A DNA stretch of 64,000 nucleotides from Candidatus Moraniibacteriota bacterium. GTDB taxonomy: Bacteria > Patescibacteriota > Minisyncoccia > Moranbacterales > UBA1568. Positions 1,493-20,509 of the stretch are shown here, piece by piece. Made by a program: the position numbers and the translations under genes. Position 1 is the first letter of the stretch; the number at the start of each line of letters is the position of its first letter. The notes beneath the pieces were generated by a model. The model saw nothing but the letters and a program-made list of their open reading frames with translations. It had not been told where the DNA came from and searched no databases. The stretch spans positions 259,242-323,241 of the forward strand of contig CP064974.1 of assembly GCA_016699385.1 (NCBI GenBank). The letters are read 5' to 3'.

Positions 1493-1530
1493 GCGTATAC
1501 AGAATTTTTCATTGAAGCTGATAATTTAGA

Positions 1531-1878: not shown

Positions 1879-1882
1879 TGTT

Positions 1883-2398: not shown

Positions 2399-2423
2399 TT
2401 TCTGTTTTGAAGCCTCTTACATT

Positions 2424-3071: not shown

Positions 3072-3090
3072 TATTGAACATGAGAATCGT

Positions 3091-3501
3091 ATGTTGATGC
3101 CGAAAAAAGTCAAACACCGGAAGATTCATCGCGGCGGAAAGGTCGAGGGAATTTCGTATGTTGGCAATCAGGTAAGCTTCGGAACCTATGGGTTGAAGTC
3201 GACGGAAGCGGGGCTTATATCTGCTCGCCAGATTGAGTCTGCACGCCGCGCGATGACACGCTATATTCAGCGTGGCGGCAAGGTGTGGATCCGGATTTTC
3301 CCTGACAAGCCGATGACGAAGAAGGGTGATGAGACGCCTATGGGAAAGGGAAAAGGAGCGGTAGACCATTTTGTTGCCAAAGTACTTGCTGGACGAGTCC
3401 TCTTTGAAATAGATGGCGTGTCTCGTGAAGTAGCTGAAAAGGCGATGAAGCTTGCTGCCTATAAGCTCTCTGTAAAAACGAAATTTGTTGTCTCTGAATA
3501 A
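3091..3501 (+). CDS. rplP: 50S ribosomal protein L16
   Basis: [15 protein letters not shown]... is a canonical L16 start. Confidence 0.95.
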
Positions 3502-3558
3502 GTGGGGGTTGATTTTTTTGGGAAAGAAAGGTATACTCAGAACTTCCTACGAACTATT

Positions 3559-3744
3559 ATGAATATCGCTGAAATACGGGAAAAAAGCCGAAAAGATATC
3601 GAGGAGGCACTCTTGGAAAGTCGGGAGGCACTTCGAGTTGTTCGATTTGGGATAGCTGAGCGTGAAGTGAAGAATCATCAGGAACACCGACGACTCCGTC
3701 GGGAAATTGCGCGAATGCTGACCGTGCTCAGCGAACGGATATAA
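3559..3744 (+). CDS. rpmC: 50S ribosomal protein L29
   Basis: Internal ATG at 3559 (MNIAEIREKS..) gives a 61-aa L29-like coiled-coil protein. The annotated ORF start at 3502 is probably upstream read-through. Confidence 0.85.
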   Translation: MNIAEIREKSRKDIEEALLESREALRVVRFGIAEREVKNHQEHRRLRREIARMLTVLSERI

Positions 3745-3751
3745 TTTTCTT

Positions 3752-4039
3752 GTGCTTGTTGGTATGACGAAGAAATCCCTACAATCTGAAATCTCTCAAT
3801 CGGCGAAAGCACCAGTATTTCGAGGTACGGTCGTGAGTGATCGAATGGAGAAAACTATCGTTGTCTCTGTAGAGACGCTCAAGACGCACCCGAAATATCG
3901 GAAGAAGTACCGATCAACGAGACGATATCAGGTACATGATCCGGAGAAAAAGCATGTGGTTGGAGATACGGTGGAGTTTCGCGAGTGTCCGCCAGTTAGT
4001 CGGCACAAGCGGCACGAAGTGATTGTCTCGGAGAAGTAA
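3752..4039 (+). CDS. rpsQ: 30S ribosomal protein S17
   Basis: ..FRGTVVSDRMEKTIVVSVE..HPKYRK.. matches the S17 OB fold. The start could also be MTKK at 3764. Confidence 0.9.
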   Translation: MLVGMTKKSLQSEISQSAKAPVFRGTVVSDRMEKTIVVSVETLKTHPKYRKKYRSTRRYQVHDPEKKHVVGDTVEFRECPPVSRHKRHEVIVSEK

Positions 4040-4083
4040 TTAAATTTTGAAATCTTGACAGGCGAGTAAGAATAATCAGACCT

Positions 4084-4449
4084 ATGATTCAGGCGGAAAC
4101 ACAACTGAAAGTGGCGGACAATAGCGGAGCGATTGTGATCGAATGCTTCAAAGTGCTTGGAGGGAGCAAGCGTCGATATGCAGCGCTTGGCGATATCATC
4201 GTTGCGTCAGTAAAGTCGTCTCAGCCGAGAGGTATGGTGAAGAAGGGTGATAAGGTAAAAGCGGTTATTGTTCGCCAAAAAGACACCTATCGTCGTGCTG
4301 ACAATTCCTGTATTCGGTTTGATGAAAATGCCGCTGTGATTCTCGAAGGAACAGAGCCAAAAGGATCGCGAGTTTTTGGGCCAATTGCTCGAGAAGTGCG
4401 TGACCGTGGCTTTGCGAAAATTGTTTCTCTTGCTCCGGAAGTTTTGTAA
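4084..4449 (+). CDS. rplN: 50S ribosomal protein L14
   Basis: [16 protein letters not shown]... is canonical L14. Confidence 0.95.
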
Positions 4450-4476
4450 GGCATCTATATCCCCTGAACAACCCCT

Positions 4477-4785
4477 ATGAAATTCAAGAAAGGAGATGAA
4501 GTCGAGATTATTACTGGAAAGGACAAAGGAAAACGAGGTCCTGTGTCTCGTACGGTGCCAACTCTTGGACAGATTGTAGTTGAGGGGGTAAATGTGCGAA
4601 AGAAACACATCAAGTCTCGAAAAGAAGGTCAGAAAGGTGAGCGAGTTGAAATATCATCGCCATTCTCAATATCCAAGGCGATGCTCGTGTGTCCTCATAC
4701 GGGGAAACTGACGAGAATTGGGTATCAAATGGAGAGCGGCGAGAAGATTCGCATCAGCAAGCGAGCAAATAAGCCGATTGCCTAA
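4477..4785 (+). CDS. rplX: 50S ribosomal protein L24
   Basis: MKFKKGDEVEIITGKDKGKRG.. shows the L24 KOW motif. Confidence 0.93.
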   Translation: MKFKKGDEVEIITGKDKGKRGPVSRTVPTLGQIVVEGVNVRKKHIKSRKEGQKGERVEISSPFSISKAMLVCPHTGKLTRIGYQMESGEKIRISKRANKPIA

Positions 4786-4825
4786 TATATCAAGAAAGAA
4801 CCGTTGAACCGTTTCCTCTACCTCT

Positions 4826-5389
4826 ATGGAACATGTCGATGTCACCATCCCACTCAAAGAAATCTATCGGACCCGCGCGGTTCCGGCACTGCTTGCTGCC
4901 TCTGGGAAATCCAATCCTATGGCGGTTGCGCGTGTTCAGAAAGTGGTTGTCAATGCCGGCATCGGGAAGTTTCTCAAGGAGGAACAGCGGGTTGAAGAAA
5001 TTGTTCGCTCGATAACGGATATCACCGGACAAAAGCCGGTCTTGACCCAAGCGAAGAAGGCGATTGCTGGATTTAAGATTCGTGAAGGACTAGCGGTCGG
5101 CGTGAAAGTGACACTGCGAGGGGATCGTATGTGGGACTTCTTGGATCGTCTTATCAAGACGGCTTTTCCACGAGTTCGGGACTTTCAGGGCATATCATCT
5201 TCAGTTGTAGACAGCAATGGACATCTCAATGTCGGAATTCGTGAGCATGCGGTATTTCCTGAGATTATCCCCGAGAAAGTGCAGACTTCGTTTGGGCTTC
5301 AGGTGACGGTTGTCACGACAGCAAAGACAAGAGATGTGGGTCTTACGCTCGCGAAGTCCCTCGGATTCCCGCTCCGCGACACCAATTAA
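4826..5389 (+). CDS. rplE: 50S ribosomal protein L5
   Basis: The 187-aa translation has L5 hallmarks (..VVVNAGIG.., ..[25 protein letters not shown]..). Confidence 0.95.
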
Positions 5390-5402
5390 AAGAATATATT
5401 GT

Positions 5403-5588
5403 ATGGCGAAGACATCGACCGTAGCGAGAGCTCGGAAACAACCAAAATTCTCTACTCGAATTGTTCGCCGATGCTGGCGTTGCGGACGGAAGCACGGCTA
5501 TCTTCGAAAGTTTGATTTGTGTCGAATTTGTTTCCGTGAGCTAGCGAGTAAAGGGGAAATTCCGGGTGTTCGAAAATCTTCATGGTAA
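5403..5588 (+). CDS. rpsZ: 30S ribosomal protein S14 type Z (zinc-binding)
   Basis: Internal start [12 protein letters not shown].. gives 61 aa with a C-x2-C...C-x2-C zinc ribbon ([20 protein letters not shown]). Confidence 0.9.
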
Positions 5589-5592
5589 TTCT

Positions 5593-6000
5593 ATGGATAC
5601 TATTGCAAACATGTTAACGAGAATCCGGAACGCTCAGCGAGCGGGACACGCTTCCGTCACACTTCCCTCATCCAAAGTGAAGTTGGCAATTGCATCCATA
5701 CTCGAGCGGAAGGGATTTGTGGAAAAAGCGACTGAGGAAGACCTTGGAAAGGGGTCTGCCAAAAGTCTTCATATTGTACTTCGGTATCGTCGTGTTTCTC
5801 CGACGGAGCTCGACCCAGCTATTCGCGAGATTCGTCGCGTGAGTCGCGGAGGACAGAGAATGTATGTGAAACACGAGGATATCCGGAAGGTAAAGAATGG
5901 TTTCGGTCTCGCCATTGTATCAACTTCCAAGGGAGTGATGACGGGGACAGAAGCGTATCACTCCGGACTCGGGGGAGAGTATCTCTGTCAGGTGTGGTAG
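5593..6000 (+). CDS. rpsH: 30S ribosomal protein S8
   Basis: MDTIANMLTRIRNA.. is a canonical S8 start. Confidence 0.95.
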   Translation: MDTIANMLTRIRNAQRAGHASVTLPSSKVKLAIASILERKGFVEKATEEDLGKGSAKSLHIVLRYRRVSPTELDPAIREIRRVSRGGQRMYVKHEDIRKVKNGFGLAIVSTSKGVMTGTEAYHSGLGGEYLCQVW

Positions 6001-6067
6001 AGGTTTGGGCAGTTTTCTCCTTGGGGCTGTACGAAAGCTCGGAAGTCCTGTAGGATTTTATCTAGCA

Positions 6068-6613
6068 ATGAAGCATATGAGCAGAATTGGAAAACAACCC
6101 ATTGCCATTCCAGCGGGTGTCGAGGCGACGCTTTCTGGAAATGTGGTGACAGCCAAAGGTCCCAAGGGAGTCCTTTCTTTGACGCACCACTACGATGTGA
6201 TTGTGAAAATCGAAGGTTCTGAGGTTTTGATTGAGAAGCGGGTGAATTCAAAGATGGCGCCGGCCCTCTGGGGAACCACCGCTCGATTGATTCACAATAT
6301 GATTGTCGGTGTGACTGCGGGGTTCTCAAAGCGCCTTGAACTGAACGGTGTCGGGTATCGCATGGTATTGCAGGGGCAGAAATTGGTATTTGCACTTGGT
6401 TTCTCGCATCCAGTTGAAGTTGCTCTTCCCGAAGGAATTGCAGCGAAAATAGAGAACAATGTATTGGATATCTCTGGTATAGATAAGCAGGCTGTGGGGC
6501 AGTTTACTGCAGAAATAAAGAAACTGAAGCCCGTTGAGCCTTACAAGGGAAAGGGATTTAGATATGTCGGAGAGACAGTATTGAAGAAGGAAGGCAAGAA
6601 ATCAGCCGCTTAA
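6068..6613 (+). CDS. rplF: 50S ribosomal protein L6
   Basis: MKHMSRIGKQPIAIPAGV.. opens L6. The start is 6068, or 6077 if the MSRIGK variant is used. Confidence 0.93.
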   Translation: MKHMSRIGKQPIAIPAGVEATLSGNVVTAKGPKGVLSLTHHYDVIVKIEGSEVLIEKRVNSKMAPALWGTTARLIHNMIVGVTAGFSKRLELNGVGYRMVLQGQKLVFALGFSHPVEVALPEGIAAKIENNVLDISGIDKQAVGQFTAEIKKLKPVEPYKGKGFRYVGETVLKKEGKKSAA

Positions 6614-6619
6614 TGACGA

Positions 6620-6985
6620 ATGGATATGAAAGGATCACTGACAAAAAAAAGTGGGCGAACGCTCCGAAAAAATCGGGTTCGTGCACGCATATCCGGGAGT
6701 GTGGAGCGTCCTCGTCTTTCGGTATTTCGAAGCCTTCGAGGAATTTCCGTGCAAGCGATTGATGATGTGAATGGGAAAACACTTTTCTCTGCGTATCTTC
6801 GTGAAATCAAAAATGGGAAGGCGTCGAATACCATTGCCGGTGCGCATGAAGTGGGAAAGTTGATAGCCAAGAAATGTCTCGCTGGGAATATTCAGAGCGC
6901 TCTCTTTGATCGAAGTAGCTATCGGTATCACGGTCGTGTGAAAGCGGTCGCGGAGGGAGCTCGAGAGGGTGGTTTGGTATTTTAG
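6620..6985 (+). CDS. rplR: 50S ribosomal protein L18
   Basis: The 121-aa translation shows L18 features (..RPRLSVFRS..IYAQ-like, C-terminal ..RYHGRVKA..). Confidence 0.92.
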   Translation: MDMKGSLTKKSGRTLRKNRVRARISGSVERPRLSVFRSLRGISVQAIDDVNGKTLFSAYLREIKNGKASNTIAGAHEVGKLIAKKCLAGNIQSALFDRSSYRYHGRVKAVAEGAREGGLVF

Positions 6986-7006
6986 CGGTAAACCATGTAA
7001 CTTTGG

Positions 7007-7576
7007 GTGAACGAATCTATGTCCAAGCAGAACAGAAAACCGAAACGTCGAGAGAAACCGGAGTATGATCAGAAACTTCTGAACCTTGCTCGCGTGACGC
7101 GCGTGGTAAAAGGCGGACGGCGATTTCGTTTTCGTGCGACGCTGGTTATTGGGAATCGGAAAGGCAAGGTCGGCGTTGGCGTTGCAAAGGGTTCGGATGT
7201 CTCAGATTCTATACAGAAGGCATTTAACGATGCGAAACGGAATATGATATCGGTGATGCTGGACGGTTCGACTATACCACATGATGTCCGCGAGAAATTG
7301 GGGAGCTCGATAGTTCTTCTAAAGCCGGGTATTGCTGGGCAGGGTATTATTGCTGGTGGCGCTGTCCGAGCAGTTATGGATTTAGCGGGTATCAAAGATA
7401 TCGTTTCCAAGTCACTTGGAGCATCAAATCCTCTCAATGTTGCTCGTACGACGGTTCGTGCGCTCTCGCGATTCCGAACAAAGCCGAGTATGAGACACGA
7501 TGAGAACGTATCGGAAACTGAACAAGTGGTAGCTGCCACAGATACTCCTGTTGCAGAAGTGACGACTCAGGTATAA
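7007..7576 (+). CDS. rpsE: 30S ribosomal protein S5
   Basis: ..LARVTRVVKGGRRFRFRATLVIGNRKGKVGVGVAKG.. matches the S5 dsRBD and C-terminal domains. It is followed directly by rplO with no L30 gene between them. Confidence 0.95.
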   Translation: MNESMSKQNRKPKRREKPEYDQKLLNLARVTRVVKGGRRFRFRATLVIGNRKGKVGVGVAKGSDVSDSIQKAFNDAKRNMISVMLDGSTIPHDVREKLGSSIVLLKPGIAGQGIIAGGAVRAVMDLAGIKDIVSKSLGASNPLNVARTTVRALSRFRTKPSMRHDENVSETEQVVAATDTPVAEVTTQV

Positions 7577-9400: not shown

Positions 9401-10066
9401 ATGAACACATTATTTACGGCTATTTTGCTAGGACCTCCGGGAAGTGGGAAGAGCACGCAGGCAGATTTTTTGGTGCGAGAGATGGAGGCGGTGCATGTTG
9501 ATATCGGTCTCGCACTTCGGAAGACCGCTGAAATGAACACGCCTCTTGGCGCGCGAGTTGCAGATATTATGAATCGCCGAAAGGAGCTTGTTCCGGATGA
9601 TATTGTCGAAGAAGTACTCTCGGGTGCACTTGCCTCGGTGCCTCCGAATCGATTGGTGATTGTTGATGGTGCTCCTCGTTGTGAAACACAGATTGAAATT
9701 ATCGATGCTATACTCAAGACATTCGAACGACGAGTGAATCTTGCTGTGTATGTTGCTCTCTCGGAAGAAGAATCGGTGCGGCGGATTTCTCGCAGATGGA
9801 TGTGTTCGCAGTGCAATCAGTCGTTTGTGTCGGGAGTAGATTTCTCGGAAGGAAACGCTCTCTGTCCTTCATGTGCTCTGCCACTTTCACGGAGAAAGGA
9901 TGATACAGAAGAGGGTGTGCGAAAACGATTCCAGGTATTTTCCTCGAATACGCTTCCAGTTGTAGAACACTACCGCAAGGAGGGCACGCTGCTTGAGGTT
10001 GATGGCACGCAAGATCCCATTACAATTTTTGGTGATATACGAAAACGTATCATGTCAAACCTTTAG
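9401..10066 (+). CDS. adk: Adenylate kinase with zinc-binding LID
   Basis: P-loop GPPGSGKSTQ is present, and the LID carries CSQC...CPSC. Confidence 0.93.
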   Translation: MNTLFTAILLGPPGSGKSTQADFLVREMEAVHVDIGLALRKTAEMNTPLGARVADIMNRRKELVPDDIVEEVLSGALASVPPNRLVIVDGAPRCETQIEIIDAILKTFERRVNLAVYVALSEEESVRRISRRWMCSQCNQSFVSGVDFSEGNALCPSCALPLSRRKDDTEEGVRKRFQVFSSNTLPVVEHYRKEGTLLEVDGTQDPITIFGDIRKRIMSNL

Positions 10067-10188
10067 TTCGCTCTTTTGTGACACAATGAAATTGAAAGAC
10101 AGAACGGTTTTTTTCAGAGTATTCTCATAAGAAAATTTTGGAAAGCTACGCCTTTCGGAAGCATGTCGCCTAAAGATGTATACGTGCT

Positions 10189-10959
10189 ATGCAACTCAAA
10201 AACAACGAGCAAATGGACGCACTTCGAGAAAGCGGCAGGCGTCTCGAGAAAGTAATGCAGGCAGTCGCAGCAGCGATTCGCCCGGGCGTTTCTACGGCGG
10301 AATTGGATGAAATTGCCGAACAAAAAATCCATCAACTCGAAAGCGCACCAGTTTTCAAAGGGTACGGCGAGGAATATGGGAAACCGTTTCCAGCGACAAT
10401 TTGTACCTCAATCAATGATGAAGTGGTGCATGGCATTCCTCGGAAAAACCGCCTTGTTCAGGATGGCGATTTGGTAAAAATAGACATGGGACTGCGCTTT
10501 AATGGGATGGTGTCCGATATGGCGCGGACATTTGCCGTCGGCGAAGTTTCCGATGAGGCGGTACGCCTCGTGCGTGTCACCGAAGAGAGCCTGTTGCGAG
10601 GAATTAGCGCCGTGCGAATTGGCGGGCGACTGTCTGATTATGCCAAGGCGGTACAAAAGCATGTTGAGGAGAATGGCTTTTCGGTCGTGCGCGATTTGGT
10701 AGGGCATGGCGTTGGTTTTGATCTCCATGAACCTCCGCAGATTCCAAATTATTATTTCGTTGGCATGAAGGATGCAATCTTCCGCGTTGGCATGGCGGTC
10801 GCTTTCGAGCCAATGGTAAATGTCGGCGGATACGAAGTGTGTCTCGGCAAAGACGGCTGGGTCTTCGCAACCGAAGATGGCAGTCTTAGTGCTCATTTCG
10901 AGGACACGGTTATTATTACTGACCAAGGCATCGAAGTCGTAACAAGAAGTGGGAAATAA
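10189..10959 (+). CDS. map: Methionine aminopeptidase type I
   Basis: The 256-aa translation shows the MetAP pita-bread fold with metal ligands (..DLVGHGVG.., ..FEPMV..). It lies after adk in conserved order. Confidence 0.93.
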   Translation: MQLKNNEQMDALRESGRRLEKVMQAVAAAIRPGVSTAELDEIAEQKIHQLESAPVFKGYGEEYGKPFPATICTSINDEVVHGIPRKNRLVQDGDLVKIDMGLRFNGMVSDMARTFAVGEVSDEAVRLVRVTEESLLRGISAVRIGGRLSDYAKAVQKHVEENGFSVVRDLVGHGVGFDLHEPPQIPNYYFVGMKDAIFRVGMAVAFEPMVNVGGYEVCLGKDGWVFATEDGSLSAHFEDTVIITDQGIEVVTRSGK

Positions 10960-10997
10960 TCTCTCACCTAGCAATATGTTCTTTTCGGCATTGTGAC

Positions 10998-11026
10998 AAA
11001 CCGTCTCTGCGGAGACGGTTTTTTGT
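10998..11026 (+). terminator. Rho-independent terminator ending the ribosomal-protein/secY/adk/map operon
   Basis: Sequence aaaCCGTCTCtgcgGAGACGGtttttt forms a perfect 8-bp stem with a 4-nt loop and a T-run. Confidence 0.75.
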
Positions 11027-11177
11027 AAGAAGTTTGGAGATTGGATATGGAGATGGAGTTGCTTGCGAAGATGACTCTGTAATGATCGGTAATTATAAAC
11101 ATTGATTTCACAATGGTACAGATATTGACAAAAATATAATTACAGTATATTTTCAAGTATACTTCTCTTGAACCCTC

Positions 11178-12128
11178 ATGAACCAGAAATCCCTCATTCT
11201 CTCTATTTTGATGGTTTTGCTCGTCGCTCTTTTCGGCGGGTGGCTTGTGTTTCGTGGTCAGAAGGGTGTTTGGAATGCTCCGAAAGGGCCATCTGTAGCC
11301 TCGGAACAGCCGGTGCAAACGGTGGAGAAACCGCAAGATGTTCAGGTTTCTGATGCCGACTTTGCCAAGTACAACAAGGTGCTTTCACGCGACAAGATTA
11401 CGGGTGTCCAAGACCTCGAAGGACCGTACAAGAAGGTGACGGTGAGTAACGGAGAGTTGACCTTTTCTTTCGAGGTCCCCGATAAGTGGCTTGTCGAGAC
11501 GCGGAATTCAGGGGAAGTGACAATGAATGAGGGGGAGTTGCGGGAGTTTTTGGGAACGAATTATGACGGGGATATCCGATCAGAAGAGGTTTGCACCAAC
11601 GAAGATGTTTATGATGCAAACGGAAAAATGACGATTGAGAAGTTTTGTGGGAAACCGTACTCCGACTATTCTGGTATGGATTGGAATACGCTTAAAAGCA
11701 TCTCGTATAAGGATATGCAGAAACGATATCTTGATGCGAAAAGTGAATTTTCTCCTGGATTTCCAAATGCAACTGTAACACCCGACAATAAAATTTGGTA
11801 CACAGATACCGGATGGGATCAGGTGCATTTTTACATTCTCGATAAAGTTTTGGATTCTCAGTATAAGTATATTAGGGGCATTACTTCTTTCTGTTATGAC
11901 ACGGAGTGTCTTCAAAAAGACTACCTTGAATATAGAGAGAATATCGAAAAGAGGGCGAAAAGAGACGAAAACAGGAATGTTATCATAGACAAGGGAGAAA
12001 TGCATGGGTTTGCGGAAACGATTGATCTTGGCAATAACAAGGTTCTTAGGATATGGAAAGAAGCCTATGCTGAAGGCGAGTTCGAAGATGGGTTTAAACG
12101 TCTCATAGACACTCTCACGTTCGAGTAA
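11178..12128 (+). CDS. Membrane-anchored hypothetical protein, paralog A (N-terminal TM helix, extracytoplasmic domain)
   Basis: The 316-aa translation starts with a hydrophobic N-terminal helix (LILSILMVLLVALFGGWLVF). It shares a near-identical internal segment and a similar C-terminus with the ORF at 13558..14457. Confidence 0.7.
   Translation: MNQKSLILSILMVLLVALFGGWLVFRGQKGVWNAPKGPSVASEQPVQTVEKPQDVQVSDADFAKYNKVLSRDKITGVQDLEGPYKKVTVSNGELTFSFEVPDKWLVETRNSGEVTMNEGELREFLGTNYDGDIRSEEVCTNEDVYDANGKMTIEKFCGKPYSDYSGMDWNTLKSISYKDMQKRYLDAKSEFSPGFPNATVTPDNKIWYTDTGWDQVHFYILDKVLDSQYKYIRGITSFCYDTECLQKDYLEYRENIEKRAKRDENRNVIIDKGEMHGFAETIDLGNNKVLRIWKEAYAEGEFEDGFKRLIDTLTFE
11343..11543 (+). repeat. About 200-bp direct repeat copy 1 (near-identical to 13704..13904), internal to paralog A
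   Basis: The nucleotide sequence gtttctgatgccgactttgccaagtacaacaaggtgctttcacgcgacaagattacgggtgtccaagacctcg... recurs with three mismatches over about 200 nt. Confidence 0.85.
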
Positions 12129-12148
12129 ATTAAATAGAAATCTGATTT

Positions 12149-12658
12149 ATGGAAAGCAAATGGAAATCAATTTTATTTCGACCAGTTTTTACGATTAGAC
12201 TTATATCTGACTACTCTCTTGTGTCAGCTTTTCTTCGAGGATTTTTGCTGAACTCGATCATTGTTGTACCTGCGAACATGTATGCGAACTTTTTCAATGT
12301 TCATGATGAGGTTGGTGATGCTACAATAATAGCTGTTTTGTATTTTGGATGTTCTCTGGTGTTTTTATGGGGCACCATTTACGGATTTTTTTCTGATAAA
12401 AGATTGTATGTCATTGGTCGTTTTTCATTCATAAGCCATGCTCTCCCTATACTATGGTCGTCTTGTTTGCTTTTTGTTTTTGTGGTTGTTGCGTCTTTTT
12501 CTTTTGATGATATATGGACATTTCTTCCAAATTCGATTTTGATTGGGATTACCTCAAGCATTATTGTTTTTTTGATCCCGTTTTTTTCTGGTTATATTTT
12601 TTCTCGTATTGTTCGATTTTTTCTTGGGATATCTTTCATGAGAAGCAAAAATGTTTGA
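12149..12658 (+). CDS. Hypothetical polytopic membrane protein
   Basis: The 169-aa ORF is AT-rich with 4-5 predicted hydrophobic helices. No motif was recognised. Confidence 0.5.
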   Translation: MESKWKSILFRPVFTIRLISDYSLVSAFLRGFLLNSIIVVPANMYANFFNVHDEVGDATIIAVLYFGCSLVFLWGTIYGFFSDKRLYVIGRFSFISHALPILWSSCLLFVFVVVASFSFDDIWTFLPNSILIGITSSIIVFLIPFFSGYIFSRIVRFFLGISFMRSKNV

Positions 12659-12687
12659 TAGTGTTTTGTAAGAAGGCATTCGATTTT

Positions 12688-12717
12688 CCACACAAATTTT
12701 CATGAAAATTTGTGTGG
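12688..12717. promoter_or_regulatory. Perfect 30-bp palindrome (13-bp arms, CATG centre) upstream of the secreted-protein gene
   Basis: CCACACAAATTTTcatgAAAATTTGTGTGG forms either an operator-like dyad or a hairpin. Confidence 0.5.
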
Positions 12718-12780
12718 AGCACCGAAGTATTCTGCTCCAAGTGCACATTGACAATCTGAATTTTAGTTGGAGGAAAAGTG

Positions 12781-13455
12781 ATGAATGTCAAGTTTGTGGT
12801 TTTGCTATTTGTATGTTTTTTCTGTCTTTGGATGGAACACGCTGTTGGTTCTGAAAGGAGTTCGTCTTTGGCGGAAAGTGTTTGGTATGGCGAAAGGCCG
12901 CTTGTATACGGGACGATCAAGACTGCGATATCTGTGCCTAATGGTCCAGCGGCTTGCGGTGACCCCAATGACACAAATGACAGAATCATGTTCTTCGATG
13001 TATCGATTTTTCGAAGAATAACCGGAAGTTCGTTTGATCCCAAAAAGATATATATCTATGGGGTGACGTTTCTTGGGGATACTGCCATTGATGTCTGGAA
13101 GTCAACAATGCCACATGGTGTGATTGAAGTATCAGCATCTCTTACGGATTGGGATAATACCGTTGCCATTTGTCTTGGCTTGAGGGCGTGGGCGTTTACT
13201 GCTGGCGGTATTGGATTTTCAGATGTTGTTCTCTGGTATGATGGTCTTGTTTCCCTTCCACCCGCCGACCCCGAATCCACCACTCCACCTCCTCCACCGT
13301 CCAACCTCCCAAGTTTGGTCTCGGCAGGAACAAGCAGTTCCGCCCCCAATCTCTCCGCAACGGTTGTGATTGAAAAGCACAACCAGCGCGAAGACACGAA
13401 CCAGCAGGTTCTTTTTGTTTCTTCATCGCGTTTTCAAAAGTTTGGAAACGAGTAG
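12781..13455 (+). CDS. Secreted hypothetical protein with Pro-rich linker
   Basis: A signal-peptide-like N-terminus (MMNVKFVVLLFVCFFCLWMEHAVG) is followed by a globular domain and a PPADPESTTPPPPPS linker. Confidence 0.6.
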   Translation: MNVKFVVLLFVCFFCLWMEHAVGSERSSSLAESVWYGERPLVYGTIKTAISVPNGPAACGDPNDTNDRIMFFDVSIFRRITGSSFDPKKIYIYGVTFLGDTAIDVWKSTMPHGVIEVSASLTDWDNTVAICLGLRAWAFTAGGIGFSDVVLWYDGLVSLPPADPESTTPPPPPSNLPSLVSAGTSSSAPNLSATVVIEKHNQREDTNQQVLFVSSSRFQKFGNE

Positions 13456-13557
13456 AGAATCAAACCGTTTCTCCTGGTACCATGGATTCATGGAACTTGT
13501 TGACAGTGCAATGATACGCAACTTGACACTAAGCCATAAACCTGTTTCAATGCTTCT

Positions 13558-14457
13558 ATGTCAAAAAAGACGCTCATTCTTGCCACCTTTTTCGTCCTCA
13601 TTGTCACTCTCGGTGGGGTGTTTTTGGTTGCGAAGGAAAAATTTGAAAGAATGGCTTTGGAAAAAGCAGACCAAGAGGAAGTGGCAAAACAAGCGGCGAT
13701 GCAACAGGTTTCTGATGCCGACTTTGCCAAGTACAACAAGGTGCTTTCACGCGACAAGATTACGGGTGTCCAAGACCTCGAAGGACCGTACAAGAAGGTG
13801 ATGGTGAGTAACGGAGAGTTGACCTTTTCTTTCGAGGTTCCCGATAAGTGGCTTGTCGAGACGCGGAATTCAGGGGAAGTGACAATGAATGAGGGGGAGT
13901 TGCGAGAATTCCTTAGTACTAGTTGTTTCTATGATGAAAAAATGAAAAGTTCCTACTTTGAACAGCAAGGAATATTTTCATCATCAAAGGAGTCATCCTA
14001 CACGGGATTTTTTCAAGAAAAGTTCAAGAAAATTACTTTCGAAGAGATGCTTACCTTATATAAAGATAAAAAAGACAAGTTTTCGGTTGGTTTTCCAAAC
14101 GCCTCTATTTCCGACGGTTGTGTAATATACTCAGGGTTAAATGGTGGACAAATAGATTTTTATCTTCTATCAGAACAGGATTCTAAACGTTACTATGATT
14201 TCGATGTTAAGGATATGAGTATATCCTCAGATGTTTCTTCTAGAGGAACAATGAGTAATACTACGCTTGGTAGTAAGAATGCCCTATCGTTTATAGGTGA
14301 TAAAACTACCGAGTATGGCTTTGCTGGCACGAGAAAGATCTTTGTGCCACTAAAAAATATAGAAAAGGTTCTTGTTATCTATCAGGAAAATGCAAACTAT
14401 AGCAATATTGTGAGCAATGCATTTGAGCATCTAATAAATACTTTCTCATTTCAGTAG
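13558..14457 (+). CDS. Membrane-anchored hypothetical protein, paralog B
   Basis: The 299-aa translation has an N-terminal TM helix. It shares ..VSDADFAKYNKVLSRDKITGVQDLEGPYKKV.VSNGELTFSFEVPDKWLVETRNSGEVTMNEGELREFL.. with paralog A. Confidence 0.7.
   Translation: MSKKTLILATFFVLIVTLGGVFLVAKEKFERMALEKADQEEVAKQAAMQQVSDADFAKYNKVLSRDKITGVQDLEGPYKKVMVSNGELTFSFEVPDKWLVETRNSGEVTMNEGELREFLSTSCFYDEKMKSSYFEQQGIFSSSKESSYTGFFQEKFKKITFEEMLTLYKDKKDKFSVGFPNASISDGCVIYSGLNGGQIDFYLLSEQDSKRYYDFDVKDMSISSDVSSRGTMSNTTLGSKNALSFIGDKTTEYGFAGTRKIFVPLKNIEKVLVIYQENANYSNIVSNAFEHLINTFSFQ
13704..13904 (+). repeat. About 200-bp direct repeat copy 2 (near-identical to 11343..11543)
   Basis: See copy 1. The flanking sequence of the two paralogs is diverged. 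Confidence 0.85.
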
Positions 14458-14467
14458 ATTCTGTTTT

Positions 14468-14518
14468 CGCAAAGAATCTTTTACAAAAAGATTCTTTGCG
14501 GACAAGGAATTTGTCCGC
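14468..14518 (+). terminator. Two overlapping perfect hairpins downstream of paralog B (13-bp stem with 7-nt loop, and 8-bp stem with 5-nt loop), no clear T-run
   Basis: The sequence is CGCAAAGAATCTTttacaaaAAGATTCTTTGCG followed by GCGGACAAggaatTTGTCCGC. Confidence 0.5.
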
Positions 14519-14572
14519 AGTGTATTTCAAGTATGGATAGATCTTTAACAACCTGAAAATGAGGTGACTTTG

Positions 14573-16516
14573 ATGAAGGCGAGATTCATAATCGTTTTCT
14601 TATTTGCAATGTTTGCATGGACGAATGCTCACGCGCAATATTGTCATGAGGGCATCCCTGGCGGTTGCCAGTGCGTTGCTTTTGCCTATGACAATGGCTA
14701 TAGCGATTTTTTTGGTACAGGATATGCCAAAAATTGGTATGGTGCCGCCAATGGGAAAGGCTATTCCACAGGGCATGTTCCCATGGTTGGTGCTGTAATA
14801 GTGTTCGATTCGTGGGGTAAGAGTGCCGCTGGTCACGTCGCTATTATTGCGAGTATTGCGAGTAGCAGTGAAATCGCTGTGAATCATGCAAACTGGGCGC
14901 CAAACGGAGCGACGGATGACAGAATTTATAGAAGTGTTTCTGTCAAAGACCTCTCTGGAGGAAACTGGACGAGCGTTTCTGTATACGGCTCCGGATCCTA
15001 TCCGGTTCTCGGTTTCATCTACTCCAAAGACGCCAACCTTGGTTTCCCTGCCACTGAATGTTCTCAAGTGAGTGCAACTCAGTATATCTGCTGGCTCACT
15101 AAGAATGGTGTTGACCGCTCTTGTGAAAATGCGACCGCATGGGGTATTGAAGATAGTGTGGCTCATATGAGCCAACCCGCAGATTGGAGTATTTGTTCGA
15201 CGTCGTGCTATGACAGTCAGTCATCAGCCCTGGATTTCTTAATTTCTCCTGTCTATGCTACTGGAACGATTAGTTCCTGCGCTAAGCAAGTGATTTCAAC
15301 CGATCATCTTGAGACTTCCATTCCCCCTCCCATCACCGGAGGCAAACACCCGGGCGACCTCCCCAATCTCATCGTTCACGAACTGTATCTGGTGAAAGAA
15401 GCCGATAGGGACAGCCCGCATCTTTCCCAAATCCATATCGGAGAACGAAGCTACTGCAACATCCAGGTCAAGAATACCGGAGAAGCCGGAGCTTGGGGCA
15501 CCTGGGCGAATCGCTGCTACTTGTCCAAAGGAAACTATCGTGATCACGATCCCGACAACCTGGGACACGAGAGCATGACTGATTTGTCGGCGGGACAATC
15601 CCGTCGAGTCTATCAAATCATTCCCGCTTTCGAATATCCGGGAAAGTTCAATATCACTGCCTGTGCAGATACGGATGGCAATGACGGCGACAAAAAGATT
15701 GCGGAATCTGATGAAGGAGACAACTGCCATGACGAATATCGTTTTGACGTGGTAAGTGATCCGAATCTTGCGACGATGGCAATCAGTCTTACTGGCATTG
15801 TCGGAAACCCCGTAATCAATCAGCCTTTCAATATTTCTTCAACCACAACCAATCTGGGAGAAAACTTCGGACCCGACTATGTCTATATCGGCTATTTCGT
15901 AGACGGAGAACTGGTGGGACAAAACCAAATCCGTCGCGAAAACATGAAAGGAGGGATGAGCAAAGCGGAAGAAATCCCCATCCACGGAGGTATTGCAACG
16001 GCCGGTGTCCACGAAATCAAAGCGTGCGCTGACTTTACGGACGATATCGTCGAGACGAACGAATCGGACAATTGCAGGATACTTCTGGTCAATGTGACTG
16101 CGCCCGTTTCTCCGATTTTGTCGATAAACGGAGTAGTTCTCGCAAACGGCACCCGCCACGTCTTCACCGACGAGCGTCCGGACATTTCCATCAGTATCGG
16201 AAATACCGGAGGCATCTCGTCTCCCATGACTGGCGAAGTATTCATTTCATCGGCTCCTCATGGGGTAGAGAATATCTCCCTGGGGACATTCCAAGTCGGC
16301 GCAGTACCCGAAGGGGGAAATGCCACTGGGACGCTTTCGGGCGTTTCGTTTACCAAGCTCGGTCCATGGGTGTTGACGGCGTGTATCGAAGGGATGACAA
16401 CCTGCACTTCAGGGGATGTCGTCACCATTGAGAGCAGCCACCCGGTAAACAAACATGTGAATCCGGCAGTCCTTATGATACTCAACAAACACAGGCGTGA
16501 GAGGAGTAGGAGATGA
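14573..16516 (+). CDS. Secreted CHAP-domain peptidoglycan hydrolase with three CARDB-like repeats
   Basis: After a signal peptide, CHAP motifs are present (..GGCQCVAFAY.. Cys and ..AAGHVAII.. His). Three repeats follow, each ending in a D/E-x-N-C (CARDB-like) motif: NCHDEYRFDV, ESDNCRILLV, and others. An RBS gaggtg lies 7 nt upstream of ATG 14573. Confidence 0.75.
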   Translation: MKARFIIVFLFAMFAWTNAHAQYCHEGIPGGCQCVAFAYDNGYSDFFGTGYAKNWYGAANGKGYSTGHVPMVGAVIVFDSWGKSAAGHVAIIASIASSSEIAVNHANWAPNGATDDRIYRSVSVKDLSGGNWTSVSVYGSGSYPVLGFIYSKDANLGFPATECSQVSATQYICWLTKNGVDRSCENATAWGIEDSVAHMSQPADWSICSTSCYDSQSSALDFLISPVYATGTISSCAKQVISTDHLETSIPPPITGGKHPGDLPNLIVHELYLVKEADRDSPHLSQIHIGERSYCNIQVKNTGEAGAWGTWANRCYLSKGNYRDHDPDNLGHESMTDLSAGQSRRVYQIIPAFEYPGKFNITACADTDGNDGDKKIAESDEGDNCHDEYRFDVVSDPNLATMAISLTGIVGNPVINQPFNISSTTTNLGENFGPDYVYIGYFVDGELVGQNQIRRENMKGGMSKAEEIPIHGGIATAGVHEIKACADFTDDIVETNESDNCRILLVNVTAPVSPILSINGVVLANGTRHVFTDERPDISISIGNTGGISSPMTGEVFISSAPHGVENISLGTFQVGAVPEGGNATGTLSGVSFTKLGPWVLTACIEGMTTCTSGDVVTIESSHPVNKHVNPAVLMILNKHRRERSRR

Positions 16517-16866
16517 AAGTGAAGCTAACATTAGCGCAAATGGTTCTGCTGATTTTCTTCAGTGGACTCATTGCTTACTCGGCTCTATCGGCTGAAACGT
16601 CGTATTGCCCGGATAGCTACAGCCAGATCGAGATAAATGGGCACTCGGTTATGCGGATTTGGGGCGTATCGGGAGTTGCTTCAAATCATGCGCTCAGTGC
16701 CAATCCCGATTATGACTGGCCGACGGAAACGTCTGTCGCTCTTTGGTACGATGCTATCGTGTCGGCAAAAGCAGATGGAACCTGTGTGAAGCTGTACTAT
16801 GACATCAATAGCAAAACGGACAGTGACAGCAACACGGTTCATGACCTGTGGTCGGTTTCCAGGTAG
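16513..16866 (+). CDS. Small secreted hypothetical protein, translationally coupled to the CHAP hydrolase
   Basis: An ATGA overlap links it to the upstream stop. A signal peptide (MKVKLTLAQMVLLIFFSGLIAYSALSA) is present, and the protein is 117 aa. Confidence 0.6.
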   Translation: MKVKLTLAQMVLLIFFSGLIAYSALSAETSYCPDSYSQIEINGHSVMRIWGVSGVASNHALSANPDYDWPTETSVALWYDAIVSAKADGTCVKLYYDINSKTDSDSNTVHDLWSVSR

Positions 16867-16899
16867 TCGCTGGAAAGTTCTTTCAATTCACAATTCAAC

Positions 16900-16930
16900 A
16901 AAACCCATTGCCGGAAGGTGGTGGGTTTTT
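16900..16930 (+). terminator. Putative terminator hairpin followed by a T-run
   Basis: The sequence AAAACCCAttgccggaaggtggTGGGTTTTTgatttggttttt forms an 8-bp stem. Confidence 0.5.
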
Positions 16931-17103
16931 GATTTGGTTTTTGGCTTGAACGGGGAGGGAAAGGGGAGTAGGATAGGGAGAGTGCTGAAGCGGAGACTTG
17001 TAAATTCAAGAAAATGTAAGGAAACTATAGATGAGAAATGTTAATGTAGTGAATCGATTGCCCTCTTTCTAAGGGAAAGTAGAGCTTTCTGTATAATAAG
17101 AGT

Positions 17104-17766
17104 ATGCCGAGAATTAAAAATCTTCCAAAACACGAGCAGCCGAGAGAAAAGCTCATTGAAAGGGGGGTAGGAAATCTTCGCGATAGTGAATTAATGGCTA
17201 TCCTCCTTGGAACTGGAATTACGGGAAAGAACGTTGTAAGGGTGTCTGAAGAAATATTGGCGAGATATCCAAAGAAGAAGCTACTAGCTCTTGATTATGG
17301 GAAATTGTCGGAAGTGAAAGGTATTGGACAGGCAAAAGCCTGTCTCTTGTTGGCGGCGTTTGAGTTGACGAAACGTGCCTTGGCGGTTGAAGATAATAGT
17401 CTCCCGATAATTGATTCGGCAAGAGACGCTGTTGCTCAGCTCCAGGAGTTGCGGACGGCTAAGAAAGAGCATTTCATTGCATTGTATTTGAATGCTCGAA
17501 ATCAACTCGTGCATAAAGAGCTTATCTCTATAGGAACGCTAAATGCTAGTCTCGTTCATCCAAGAGAGGTGTTTAAGCCAGCTGTAGATTGTCTTGCTGC
17601 GGGAATTATTGTCGCTCATAATCATCCATCAGGGAGTCTTGAGCCGTCATTTGAAGATATTGAGGTAACAAAGCGATTGTTCAGGGCGGGTAAAGTTCTA
17701 GATATACGAGTAATTGATCATATAATTGTGGCAACGGCGGGGTGGAAAGTTATCGCTATTGATTGA
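17104..17766 (+). CDS. radC: RadC-like JAB/MPN domain protein (UPF0758)
   Basis: An N-terminal helix-hairpin-helix region and the HNHPSG..EPS..D JAMM motif are present. Confidence 0.85.
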   Translation: MPRIKNLPKHEQPREKLIERGVGNLRDSELMAILLGTGITGKNVVRVSEEILARYPKKKLLALDYGKLSEVKGIGQAKACLLLAAFELTKRALAVEDNSLPIIDSARDAVAQLQELRTAKKEHFIALYLNARNQLVHKELISIGTLNASLVHPREVFKPAVDCLAAGIIVAHNHPSGSLEPSFEDIEVTKRLFRAGKVLDIRVIDHIIVATAGWKVIAID

Positions 17767-17769
17767 CTT

Positions 17770-19155
17770 ATGCAAAAGAAATACCAAACGAAGGAGGCAG
17801 TTATCAATGAAGCGAGGAAGATATTGAATCAATCCCTGCGGAGTTTGATGTCTAAAGATGATATTGATGCAGTTGAAAAGCGTCTTAACTCCTATGGTAC
17901 AAATCGGAAGGGATTTCTTGGCGGACTCGTTGAAGAGTTTGTATTTGGTCTCAGTGTAAACAATAATTCAGAAGCTGATTTCAAGATAGCGGGAGTCGAA
18001 TTAAAAACAAATCCACTTAAGAGCCATCCTACAAAGGTGTATATCTCAAAGGAGCGTCTTGTTTTCTCCCTGATTAATTACGATGAAATTGTTCAGGAGA
18101 CGTGGGAAACAAGCTCTTTCCTTAAGAAGAATAGAGTTCTTCTTATACTATTCTATTTATGGATGAAGGAGCAGAGTCTTCTTGATTATAAATTCAAATT
18201 TGTTTACTTGATGAATTTACTTGAAGATATATCGGATGTTGATATCTTTCAGATACGTAAAGATTGGGAGTATATAGTTGCGAAGATAAGACGGGGAGAG
18301 GCGCATCTTCTATCTGAAGGTGATACGTATTATCTCGGAGCGTGTACGAAAGCTGCGAATAGCCAGATTGTCCGCGAACAGCCGAACAATCGAATTCCAG
18401 CTAAACCTCGAGCATTCTCTCTCAAGCAACAGTATTTAAACTATATTATCCAGAAGGAGCTTCTCGGAAAGGATATTGAGACGGATTCTATTTTTAAGAA
18501 GACGCGGCGAATTGAAAGTGTTGATGATGCTTTTAAGGAAAAATTGAGACCTTACATCGGAAAGACTGACAAGGAGATTATTCAGGAGATTGGTTGGAAG
18601 GGAGCGACGAAAGCGAAAAATTATAGAAGGATACTCGTAAATAAGATGCTCGGGGTATCTTCAAATAGGATTGAAGAGCTTGAGAAAGCGAATGTCACGC
18701 TTAGAGTGGTAACTCTTGAACACACGGGTTCTCTCAGGGAATCCATATCATTTCCAGCCTTTGATTATAATGAACTTGTCATACAGGAATGGGAGAATGA
18801 AGAGGATGGAACTATGACGGACTTTCATTTGGCACTTGAAACAAGGAGATTTCTTTTCATAGTCTTCCAGAAGATTGTGGGAAGTAGTGAAATCGTTCTT
18901 AAAAAAATTAAGTTTTGGAATTTCCCAATGAAAGATATGACTGAAGCAAAGCGTGTGTGGGAGAAAGCTGTTGAATGTGTGAGGGAAGGGCACTATGGAG
19001 ATTTACCAAAAATGAGCGAGAGTGCCATTGCGCACGTAAGACCACATGGGAAGGATTTGACGGATACTCTTGAAACGCCACAAGGAACGCGTGAAGTAAA
19101 GCGATGTTTTTGGTTGAATGCAAATTATATACGAAGAGTGGTAGAGGATGACTAA
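17770..19155 (+). CDS. Type II restriction endonuclease, MutH/Sau3AI family (probable GATC specificity)
   Basis: The 461-aa protein carries ..EADFKIAGVELKTNP.., which matches the MutH/Sau3AI D-(x)n-E-x-K catalytic signature (DF..GVELKT). It lies immediately upstream of a C5-methyltransferase. Confidence 0.7.
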   Translation: MQKKYQTKEAVINEARKILNQSLRSLMSKDDIDAVEKRLNSYGTNRKGFLGGLVEEFVFGLSVNNNSEADFKIAGVELKTNPLKSHPTKVYISKERLVFSLINYDEIVQETWETSSFLKKNRVLLILFYLWMKEQSLLDYKFKFVYLMNLLEDISDVDIFQIRKDWEYIVAKIRRGEAHLLSEGDTYYLGACTKAANSQIVREQPNNRIPAKPRAFSLKQQYLNYIIQKELLGKDIETDSIFKKTRRIESVDDAFKEKLRPYIGKTDKEIIQEIGWKGATKAKNYRRILVNKMLGVSSNRIEELEKANVTLRVVTLEHTGSLRESISFPAFDYNELVIQEWENEEDGTMTDFHLALETRRFLFIVFQKIVGSSEIVLKKIKFWNFPMKDMTEAKRVWEKAVECVREGHYGDLPKMSESAIAHVRPHGKDLTDTLETPQGTREVKRCFWLNANYIRRVVEDD

Positions 19156-19228
19156 TCTAAGCCGTAGTTGATCAATTTTCAGTACTCTGCTACCATTGTT
19201 GTTGTGGCGTTTAACTACCTTTCTTGGT

Positions 19229-20509
19229 ATGAAGAAGATACGAATTGTTGAATTGTTTGCTGGAGTTGGAGGATTTCGTCTTGGTCTTGATGCTGCAAGT
19301 AGAAAAGATTGCAAATATGAGGTTGTCTGGAGTAGCCAGTGGGAACCTGACGCTAAGATGCAGCACGCTTCCGGTATTTATGTTCACAAGTTTGGATCTA
19401 AAGGTCACTCATGTGAAGATATACGACAAGTAGTCGAGAAAAAATTTGAAGAAATAGTAGACCATGATTTGCTTGTTGGAGGTTTCCCGTGTCAGGATTA
19501 TTCCGTTGCAAGGACATTGAGTCGAGCTGAAGGCTTGAAAGGAAAGAAGGGAGTTCTTTGGTGGTCGATATTTGATATTCTGAAGAAGAAGGGGAAAAAA
19601 GCTCCTCGATTTCTTATGTTGGAGAATGTTGATCGGTTGTTGAAATCGCCAGCATCACAGCGTGGACGCGATTTCGCAGTCATGCTTTCTTCTCTTGCTG
19701 ACCTTGGTTATGCAGTTGAATGGCGGATTATAAATGCGGCAGAATATGGATTTCCGCAGAGGAGAAGACGCGTTTTTATTCTTGGGTATAAAAAGGGTAC
19801 AAACCTGTATACAACAGTGAATTCTGAGAAAATGAAGTCAGATTGGTTGCAAAGTAATGGCGTTATAGCAAAGGCATTTCCTGTTGAGAAATCTACTAAT
19901 AGTGCCCGTGAATTTCTTATTGAAGGAGATTTTGCTGAGGTGACAAAGAATTTTTCAGTCGGAGGTCCAGCGAAAAGTCCGTTTGAGAATTCCGGGCTGA
20001 TGATTAATCGAAAAGTCTATACATTGAAGACGATTCCAAAGCAGTCGAAGCATAAGATTATTCTTGGAGATATAATTGAGACTGACGAGAAGAAGATTCC
20101 AGATGTCTTTTTTGTAGATGATAATGAGATAAAGGAATGGGAGTATTTGAAGGCAGGAAAAAAAGAACGACGAGAGACAAAGACTGGGCATGTATACCAT
20201 TATTCGGAAGGGTCGATGATTTTCCCTGACTCATTAGAGAAACCATCACGTACAATCGTAACTGGTGAAGGAGGACGTTCCGCATCGAGGTTTAAGCATG
20301 TTATTAGAACAAACTCTGGGAGACTCCGCCGATTGATGCCAATAGAACTTGAGAGGCTCAATATGTTTCCTGATAATCACACGCGGTTTATGGGGGAAGG
20401 ACTGGAAGTTTCTGATGTGAAGCGAGCGTTTATTATGGGAAACGCACTTGTTGTTGGTGTCATTAGAGAGCTTGGGAAGTCTCTTCGAAAAGCTATTGAA
20501 AAAGAATAA
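19229..20509 (+). CDS. DNA (cytosine-5)-methyltransferase (type II R-M modification subunit)
   Basis: Motifs I (ELFAGVGGFRLG), IV (GGFPCQDYS), VI (LMLENV) and VIII (QRRRRVFILG) are all present. Confidence 0.9.
   Translation: MKKIRIVELFAGVGGFRLGLDAASRKDCKYEVVWSSQWEPDAKMQHASGIYVHKFGSKGHSCEDIRQVVEKKFEEIVDHDLLVGGFPCQDYSVARTLSRAEGLKGKKGVLWWSIFDILKKKGKKAPRFLMLENVDRLLKSPASQRGRDFAVMLSSLADLGYAVEWRIINAAEYGFPQRRRRVFILGYKKGTNLYTTVNSEKMKSDWLQSNGVIAKAFPVEKSTNSAREFLIEGDFAEVTKNFSVGGPAKSPFENSGLMINRKVYTLKTIPKQSKHKIILGDIIETDEKKIPDVFFVDDNEIKEWEYLKAGKKERRETKTGHVYHYSEGSMIFPDSLEKPSRTIVTGEGGRSASRFKHVIRTNSGRLRRLMPIELERLNMFPDNHTRFMGEGLEVSDVKRAFIMGNALVVGVIRELGKSLRKAIEKE

Follow-up and report, generated by a model that had tools for sequence, protein, structure and literature searches.

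Probable recent gene conversion between two diverged membrane-anchored paralogs in a Candidatus Moranbacteria chromosome

The 64-kb stretch of DNA analysed here (the window) is part of the closed 1.11-Mb chromosome (contig of 1,111,322 bp) of a metagenome-assembled genome (MAG) of Candidatus Moranbacteria, a member of the candidate phyla radiation (CPR). Two of its genes, designated A and B, encode membrane-anchored proteins that are strongly diverged along most of their length and nearly identical over about 200 bp. The question raised by this locus is how such a tract came to be shared by two otherwise dissimilar paralogs. The best explanation, and a highly probable one, is a recent intragenomic gene conversion in which part of B was copied into A. 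The evidence consists of assembled sequences, and the contigs used for comparison (Logan and MAG contigs L001–L040) and proteins (P0002–P0036) are cited below by their designations where needed. The features concerned are the following.

11178–12128, + strand: gene A (IPJ67_01255, QQR77759.1, 316 amino acids (aa)), with a transmembrane anchor, Pro/Gln-rich stalk N1, module T and C-terminal domain CA; recipient
13558–14457, + strand: gene B (IPJ67_01270, QQR77762.1, 299 aa from the ATG), with a transmembrane anchor, Glu/Lys-rich stalk N2, module T and C-terminal domain CB; donor
11343–11548, + strand: tract copy T_A, 206 nt, codons 56–124 of A
13705–13910, + strand: tract copy T_B, 206 nt
11408–11540, + strand: minimal converted patch in A, from the first to the last site differing from the unconverted A′, L037 and L039

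As revealed by a self-comparison, the 206-nt direct repeat, with a spacing of 2362 nt, is the sole repeat longer than 60 nt in the window. By exact count, the two copies differ at four of 206 positions (11440 C/T, 11477 C/T, 11543 G/A and 11546 G/A, given as A/B), two of which lie within the first 200 nt; the longest exact run is 97 nt. The edges of the tract are sharp, being located at 11343 on one side and at 11543–11549 on the other. A and B are true paralogs (BLASTP 2e-66, 42% identity overall). Outside the tract they are 45–46% identical in DNA and 31–32% in protein, whereas inside it these values reach 97.6% and 98.6%, and a binomial test of the tract identity against the flank background gave about 5e-63 (203 of 206 matches were used; the true count of 202 leaves the order of magnitude unchanged). 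According to Nei–Gojobori estimates, the synonymous divergence dS in the tract is 0.095 and the non-synonymous divergence dN is 0.006, while the proportion of synonymous differences pS in the flanks on both sides is 0.74–0.80, which corresponds to saturation. Synonymous as well as non-synonymous sites are thus homogenised in the tract. A recent whole-gene duplication followed by fast divergence was also considered and rejected, as CA-type and CB-type genes both have orthologues in other lineages.

An earlier sequence-only reading of this DNA had proposed gene conversion or recent recombination between two membrane-anchored open reading frames (ORFs). Both ORFs do possess N-terminal hydrophobic anchors, and the proposal is borne out by the contrast of dN and dS inside and outside the tract, a comparison which that reading had suggested, as well as by the unconverted alleles and the discordance of tract and flanks described below. 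Its count of three differences in 11343–11543 agrees with the exact count; the interval assigned to the second copy, 13704–13904, was one base off and too short, the correct one being 13705–13910. The search for additional copies, also suggested there, found none of the tract or of either leader (the 5′ segments of A and B) in the window, and protein searches show two family members from the source genome. An exact look-up of the protein P0021, made for a contig with B, gave no match.

Alleles of A that lack the B-like patch are present in related genomes. The allele A′ (Logan contigs L001–L003) differs from A at 32 positions, including 15 in 11184–11264 (the leader), none in 11265–11407, 14 in 11408–11540 and three in the last 580 nt. 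The comparison of the patch with the flanks gives 14 sites in 11408–11540 versus three in 731 flanking nt (Fisher 1e-9). Contig L037, which covers A′ and the next gene X, differs from the window at 12 positions, ten of which are located in 11474–11540 (10/72 nt in the patch versus 2/1176 elsewhere, Fisher 1e-11). The A′-type tract was also found in L039, which comes from a different MAG and spans A′-X-Y′, and in L040. The window gene order, A-X or A-X-Y, is kept in L037 and L039. Thus, in four independent assemblies (L001–L003, L037, L039 and L040) the flanks are 99.4–99.8% identical to A, and 10–14 differences lie within 11408–11540.

At all the patch sites that distinguish A from the A′ type, with the exception of 11477, A is identical to B, and 131 of the 133 nt of the patch match between A and B. 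By its tract A falls with B, and by its flanks with the unconverted alleles. Meanwhile, B is 82–88% identical to its orthologue in L009 along the gene and 87.2% identical to it in the patch. This uniform similarity, including the patch, indicates that B evolved vertically, so that B was the donor and A the recipient. The amino acid sequences show the same grouping: A has ELTFSF as in the B lineage, in place of the EVTFSF (or EITFSF) of A′ and the A-type orthologues examined, and WLVE in place of the WLTE that most of these have. Both internal differences of the patch are singletons, T being found at position 11440 in B alone and C at 11477 in A alone, and the tract of another contig, L004, has the inferred ancestral state at both positions. 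Judging from these singletons and the ancestral L004 tract, the conversion is about as old as the split of the window strain from its 99%-identical relatives.

The event can be pictured as follows. A and B are old tandem paralogs, located in direct orientation 2362 bp apart and encoding membrane-anchored extracytoplasmic proteins. Purifying selection at the protein level presumably keeps the paralogs about 90% identical in DNA at the module, which would be enough for the formation of a heteroduplex. A non-reciprocal homologous recombination (ectopic gene conversion), probably of the RecA type, would then have copied part of B into A. The length transferred would be at least 133 nt (11408–11540) and at most about 200 nt (11343–11542), and its source in B would be 13770–13902 or possibly 13705–13904. 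After the event each copy would have acquired one substitution within the first 200 nt, at the site 11440 in B and at 11477 in A. The 200-bp identity that now exists can in turn promote the loss or duplication of the 2.36-kb unit.

Several observations weigh against this reading of the event or blur its details. At the 14 sites distinguishing A and A′, the L009 orthologue agrees with the window at six and with A′ at seven, so the sequence states alone do not polarise every site, and the direction rests mainly on the concordance of the flanks versus the patch. Besides, the first 65 nt of the tract (11343–11407; 13705–13769) are identical in A, B, A′ and L004 and match at 64 of 65 positions in L009. 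Because of this common start the 5′ limit of the event is not placeable, and it suggests at least one further exchange, older or between lineages. Assemblies alone do not directly show population heterogeneity or an effect of polishing, and the donor could formally be an imported allele instead of the resident B.

The tract also has a history beyond this single event. The genes of the family were split into stalk (N), tract (T) and C-terminal part (C), and each part was compared with the window genes, which gave the following compositions.

A, A′: stalk N1, C-terminal part CA
B, L009: stalk N2, C-terminal part CB
L004 (P0002), L021/L020 (P0003): stalk N2, C-terminal part CA
L019, L018: stalk N1′ (41–42% identical to N1), C-terminal part CA
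L005–L008 (P0018): stalk N1′, C-terminal part CB

Both stalk classes pair with both CA and CB, and all four combinations exist across genomes when the distant N1′ variants (L005/L019/L018, 41–42% identity) are taken into the N1 class. In L021, the combination N2-T-CA is found in a linear context and is followed by a CHAP gene. The comparison of L019 and L005 is instructive, as the upstream gene is 99.5% identical and the 5′ part of the family gene is 92% identical to the end of T, after which CA follows in one contig and CB in the other. This reassortment of stalks and C-terminal types across T points to module T as a recurrent crossover joint that reshuffles the stalks and C-terminal domains of the family.

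Contig L004 (GCA_049289275.1, JBATLK010000232.1), 2384 bp long, corresponds to window positions 12901–13910 followed by 11343–12909 with an identity of about 99%. Its ends overlap by 9 nt, which makes it a circular permutation of the 2362-bp repeat unit with the order Y, N2-T-CA, X and the start of Y. This independent MAG contig therefore has N2-T joined to CA-X-Y. Possible origins are a loop in the assembly graph of a window-like genome, the junction of a tandem duplication, an excised circle and wrong binning of the contig. L032, assigned to the same MAG as L004, is just 93.9% identical to the window and aligns with positions 9513–11243 (L032 1–1729).

L032 draws attention to the beginning of gene A, where two further features are located.

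11125–11153, + strand: promoter-like site upstream of A, TTGACA, 17-nt spacer, TATTTT; 10 of 12 consensus matches, a consensus match alone
11178–11243, + strand: 5′ leader segment of A, shared, with the upstream adk-map-promoter region, with the P0036 gene in a related MAG

The promoter-like region is conserved in L032, where adk and map are followed by the gene of the PsbP_2-type protein P0036 and then by an M23 peptidase gene. The homology of L032 to the window stops at 11243, inside the leader of A. On the other side, the identity of the window with A′ begins at about 11239 (11265–11407 without any difference), and the region upstream of A′ is unrelated. The leader of A is thus a second recombination junction. 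Which genes follow map varies among related genomes. In L018, similar leaders are found in three adjacent genes of membrane-anchored proteins, one of 210 aa, one of 196 aa with a PsbP_2-type motif and one of A type.

These two joints raise the question of whether the locus is a dedicated surface-variation system, in which cassettes would often be exchanged at the leader and module T within one cell lineage, with the excised or amplified 2.36-kb unit as an intermediate. All four combinations of stalk class and domain, the replacement of cassettes downstream of the conserved adk-map-promoter-leader region, the circularly permuted L004 and the similar leaders of the three L018 genes are in line with it. 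Such a system is nevertheless unlikely, since the window contains two full-length copies alone and no silent cassettes, and the protein searches revealed no third family protein from the source genome. No reverse transcriptase, integrase, transposase or recombinase was found among 36 window ORFs scanned against Pfam, which comprise most of the large ones and leave out the small ORFs and several large ones, including those of the ribosomal-protein region 650–7576. The large ORFs scanned have housekeeping or envelope matches or no Pfam match. The product of a strain-level deletion, N1-T-CB, was not found in the databases searched with B, and all the variation observed is between genomes, none within one. 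The sequence-only reading had compared the pair with antigen-variation cassettes. The part of this analogy that stands is that module T joins reassorted stalks and C-terminal domains between genomes; the part that does not stand is the cassette itself, as there are two full-length copies alone, each with its own start and anchor, and the conserved piece is the one that moved.

A mosaic locus could also have received its patch from outside. It is conceivable that the patch in A was imported by homologous recombination from another strain, for example from an N2-T-CA gene like that in L004, and not from the resident B. The locus is highly mosaic between strains, L004 has the same type of tract joined to CA, and the 65-nt stretch is common to lineages that are otherwise about 87% identical. 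The resident B, located 2.3 kb away, evolving vertically and matching 131 of the 133 nt of the patch, would be the more economical donor, which makes an import rather improbable. Both routes would give the same product, and the sequence alone does not separate them.

An origin of the tract in assembly or polishing, either as a collapsed repeat or by short-read homogenising of two copies 92% identical, is less probable still. The source is a metagenome-assembled genome, and L004 shows assemblers struggling at the repeat. Nevertheless, the chromosome of 1.11 Mb is closed, both ORFs are in frame and the two copies differ at four positions. Reads of a copy with 10–14 mismatches would not be misplaced across the whole patch, and L004, an independent MAG contig, has the same tract joined to the C-terminal half of A. 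The collapsed repeat, which the sequence-only reading had named as a reason to doubt the tract, is accordingly unlikely.

The same reading had offered purifying selection at the nucleotide level as an alternative. In this case selection on the DNA or RNA itself would have kept the identity, acting for example on a regulatory RNA within the tract, on a binding site or on a recoding signal, and the raised GC content at third codon positions (GC3) of the tract, 65–68% versus 35–45% in the rest of the A and B genes, could be taken as its trace. The comparison with orthologues refutes it. In distant orthologues 40–70% of the codons of the tract that encode the same amino acid are synonymously changed, and a closed genome, CP064994.1, has two paralogs with just 63% identity over the tract. 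These free synonymous sites rule out nucleotide-level selection. Alleles of A with 14 differences exist as well. A search of 10000–17500 against Rfam with a permissive threshold gave no match in the tract; the miRNA-like matches obtained are limited to the two terminator hairpins and were rejected as spurious. There is hardly any probability left for this explanation.

The GC3 of the tract is also raised in all orthologues, less strongly. At the 14 converted sites, the window has G or C and A′ has A or T at ten, and the reverse is the case at three. This pattern is reminiscent of GC-biased conversion; alternatively, selection on codons in the conserved module could have produced it.

Finally, diversity-generating retroelements (DGRs), which consist of a template repeat and a variable repeat and are common in CPR bacteria, can practically be dismissed as the source of the pair in spite of the about typical size of this near-identical repeat of some 200 bp, as the differences (C/T, C/T, G/A, G/A) are not confined to the adenines of one copy and 53 adenines are unchanged, the repeat encodes the best conserved part of both proteins, which is N-terminal and not a C-terminal variable region, and no reverse transcriptase was found among the 36 ORFs scanned.

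Gene conversion from B to A thus remains the preferred explanation, and the next question is what kind of proteins it has affected. No family was assigned to A, B, X or the secreted protein Y in the Pfam and NCBIfam scans. A word-indexed search yielded 36 relatives of A and B, and all of those with a named source belong to Candidatus Moraniibacteriota. A profile search of 1.84 billion representatives gave 145 matches, 94 of them below 1e-10. The distant relatives are shorter, about 230 aa, and keep the motifs YKKV..FSFEVP..W and ..FE..F..L..T..F. A and B belong to a small, Moranbacteria-dominated family without prior description.

The AlphaFold2 model of A, with a predicted local distance difference test score of 84.6 and a predicted template modelling score of 0.75, comprises a transmembrane helix at 3–26, a disordered stalk at 27–56 and then a single alpha/beta ectodomain. 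In this model the tract corresponds to a helix at 59–65, four strands between residues 76 and 107 and a helix at 118–125, and the module T which it encodes is the most conserved block of the family alignment. A Foldseek search with the model against PDB and BFVD found nothing below E 0.04, and a profile search of PDB sequences with the family gave nothing significant. Based on this layout and on the neighbours, which include CHAP or M23 hydrolases and CARDB proteins, the family is placed at the cell envelope.

PsbP_2 (PF18933) was considered as a possible family for A and B, neither of which matches it at E <= 1 in Pfam. The PsbP_2 proteins, which occur in CPR and Gram-positive bacteria, are similar to A and B in having an N-terminal anchor, a low-complexity stalk and an alpha/beta ectodomain opening with a "YP..W / EVP..W" hairpin, and their genes adjoin family genes and have near-identical leaders in common with them (P0034–P0036, L018). 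P0034 and P0036, with the leader in common, do match PsbP_2. The alignment of the family with a PsbP_2-like set by hhalign has a probability of 96%, but it covers the leader and the first hairpin alone, and for this reason the A/B family was not filed under PsbP_2. Unlike PsbP_2, A and B have no match in Pfam and none in PDB or BFVD.

The remaining features of the cluster, downstream of A, are listed below.

12149–12658, + strand: gene X (IPJ67_01260, 169 aa), polytopic, with about 4–5 hydrophobic segments; no family match
12679–12726, no strand assigned: palindromic hairpin between X and Y, 24-nt arms, no loop
12778–13455, + strand: gene Y (225 aa), secreted, with one N-terminal hydrophobic segment and a Pro/Ser-rich C-terminal segment
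14496–14520, + strand: terminator-like hairpin after B (inverted repeat I2)
14564–16516, + strand: CHAP peptidoglycan hydrolase fused to CARDB domains (650 aa; CHAP 6e-12, CARDB 8e-14)
16513–16866, + strand: 117-aa protein with an N-terminal hydrophobic segment, last gene of the cluster
16900–16929: terminator-like site after the 117-aa gene

The envelope cluster is preceded by the end of a ribosomal-protein operon, which includes L15 (7594), a 426-aa polytopic membrane ORF at 8096, a 221-aa P-loop ORF at 9401 and map (10189). The ORF at 8096 was read as a putative secY by its position and sequence, and that at 9401 as a probable adk, the counterpart of which in L032 carries the Pfam ADK domain. 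X and Y are the polytopic membrane protein and the secreted protein which had already been recognised between the two copies. X is found 3′ of A-type genes in L004, L037, L038, L039 and L040, and L018 has a 173-aa hydrophobic protein at the position of X. The Logan contigs L037, L038 and L040 end at the 12679–12726 hairpin, the shape of which alone accounts for the spurious miRNA-like Rfam matches there. Downstream of the family genes, the CHAP/CARDB neighbour is syntenic in L001, L005, L009 and L021. Counterparts of the 117-aa protein, 116–121 aa long, are encoded in L001, L005, L009 and L035. On the 3′ side of the cluster, genes of RadC, a MutH-like endonuclease and a C5 methylase are located (17104–20509).

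Some details of the cluster are worth recording. CHAP and CARDB are fused in the window and in L005 and are split in L001 and L009 (CHAP of 234–243 aa, CARDB of 386–463 aa), and L035 has an M23 peptidase instead of CHAP. The Pro/Ser-rich segment of Y (13256–13411) has 81% DNA identity to L001 6476–6628, which lies inside a CARDB gene, and is another module common to otherwise unrelated envelope genes. In L039 (GCA_054403375.1), positions 1514–2740 comprise A′-X-Y with Y truncated at the match to window position 13261. The truncated Y is followed by a fragment of a type I restriction S-subunit, which in L001 is located upstream of A′, another case of rearrangement in the surroundings of the cluster. 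For B, the public annotation (QQR77762.1, 277 aa) begins at an internal TTG and drops the transmembrane anchor, while the ATG at 13558 gives a leader (13558–13623) kept in the orthologues P0002, P0003, P0016 and L009.

The envelope cluster sits directly after the end of the secY-adk-map operon (window 10959–17104). The usual continuation after secY-adk-map is infA-rpmJ-rpsM-rpsK, and these genes are absent at this position, a statement limited to this position, as the rest of the window was not checked for them. At the far end of the window, a 662-aa ORF (60533–62521) combines GlutR_N and Shikimate_DH, the layout of a glutamyl-tRNA reductase, with the catalytic domain of a class II aminoacyl-tRNA synthetase. 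It looks like an unusual fusion, and a complete class II synthetase (62534–63931) is encoded directly 3′ of it.

How does this locus compare with known systems? Ectopic gene conversion is known for tufA/tufB, the rRNA operons, and the outer-membrane paralogs hop/bab of Helicobacter and opa of Neisseria. As in these cases, a short non-reciprocal tract has homogenised part of two paralogs in one genome, including synonymous sites, and the tract unites the paralogs of one genome while the flanks follow orthology. Unlike them, A and B are otherwise saturated (31% amino acid identity), which restricts the homogenisation to a single module of about 200 bp under constraint at the protein level. Other differences are the host, an uncultivated CPR bacterium, and the uncharacterised nature of the family.

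Cassette-based antigenic variation has been described for Neisseria pilE/pilS, Borrelia vlsE and Mycoplasma genitalium mgpB/MgPar. The likeness lies in surface-exposed proteins, in conserved segments that may act as joints reshuffling the flanking variable parts, and in a conserved promoter and leader preceding different cassettes in different genomes. In contrast to these systems, there are no silent partial cassettes, two complete genes being present instead, and the segment moved is the conserved one. The variation is documented between genomes alone, with no dedicated machinery among the ORFs scanned.

The conversion event is a known process, gene conversion itself being textbook knowledge, in an undescribed family and in an unusually mosaic envelope locus. 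No paper on gene conversion or recombination of surface paralogs in Moranbacteria or Patescibacteria came up in full-text searches of the literature. The event is an unusually clean and datable conversion in a CPR bacterium, for which the donor, the recipient and the unconverted alleles are all identified. It also exposes an uncharacterised family of anchored ectodomains travelling with CHAP or M23 cell-wall hydrolases and CARDB proteins, and an envelope cluster which recombination at two conserved, short joints has rebuilt among near-identical strains.

A broader possibility, which is speculative and rather doubtful at present, is that Moranbacteria shuffle their cell-surface proteins by a modular system, with the tract and the leader as its two joints. 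A fixed promoter and leader after secY-adk-map would take different ectodomain cassettes, T would recombine stalks and C-terminal domains, and the 2.36-kb unit would loop out or amplify, with L004 as the circle or the tandem junction. If this is true, the shuffling would let an episymbiont with a genome of 1 Mb change the surface in contact with its host at little cost, although any adaptive value of the exchange is itself conjectural. If CPR episymbionts do vary their attachment surface in this manner, the locus would be a concrete site to test it.

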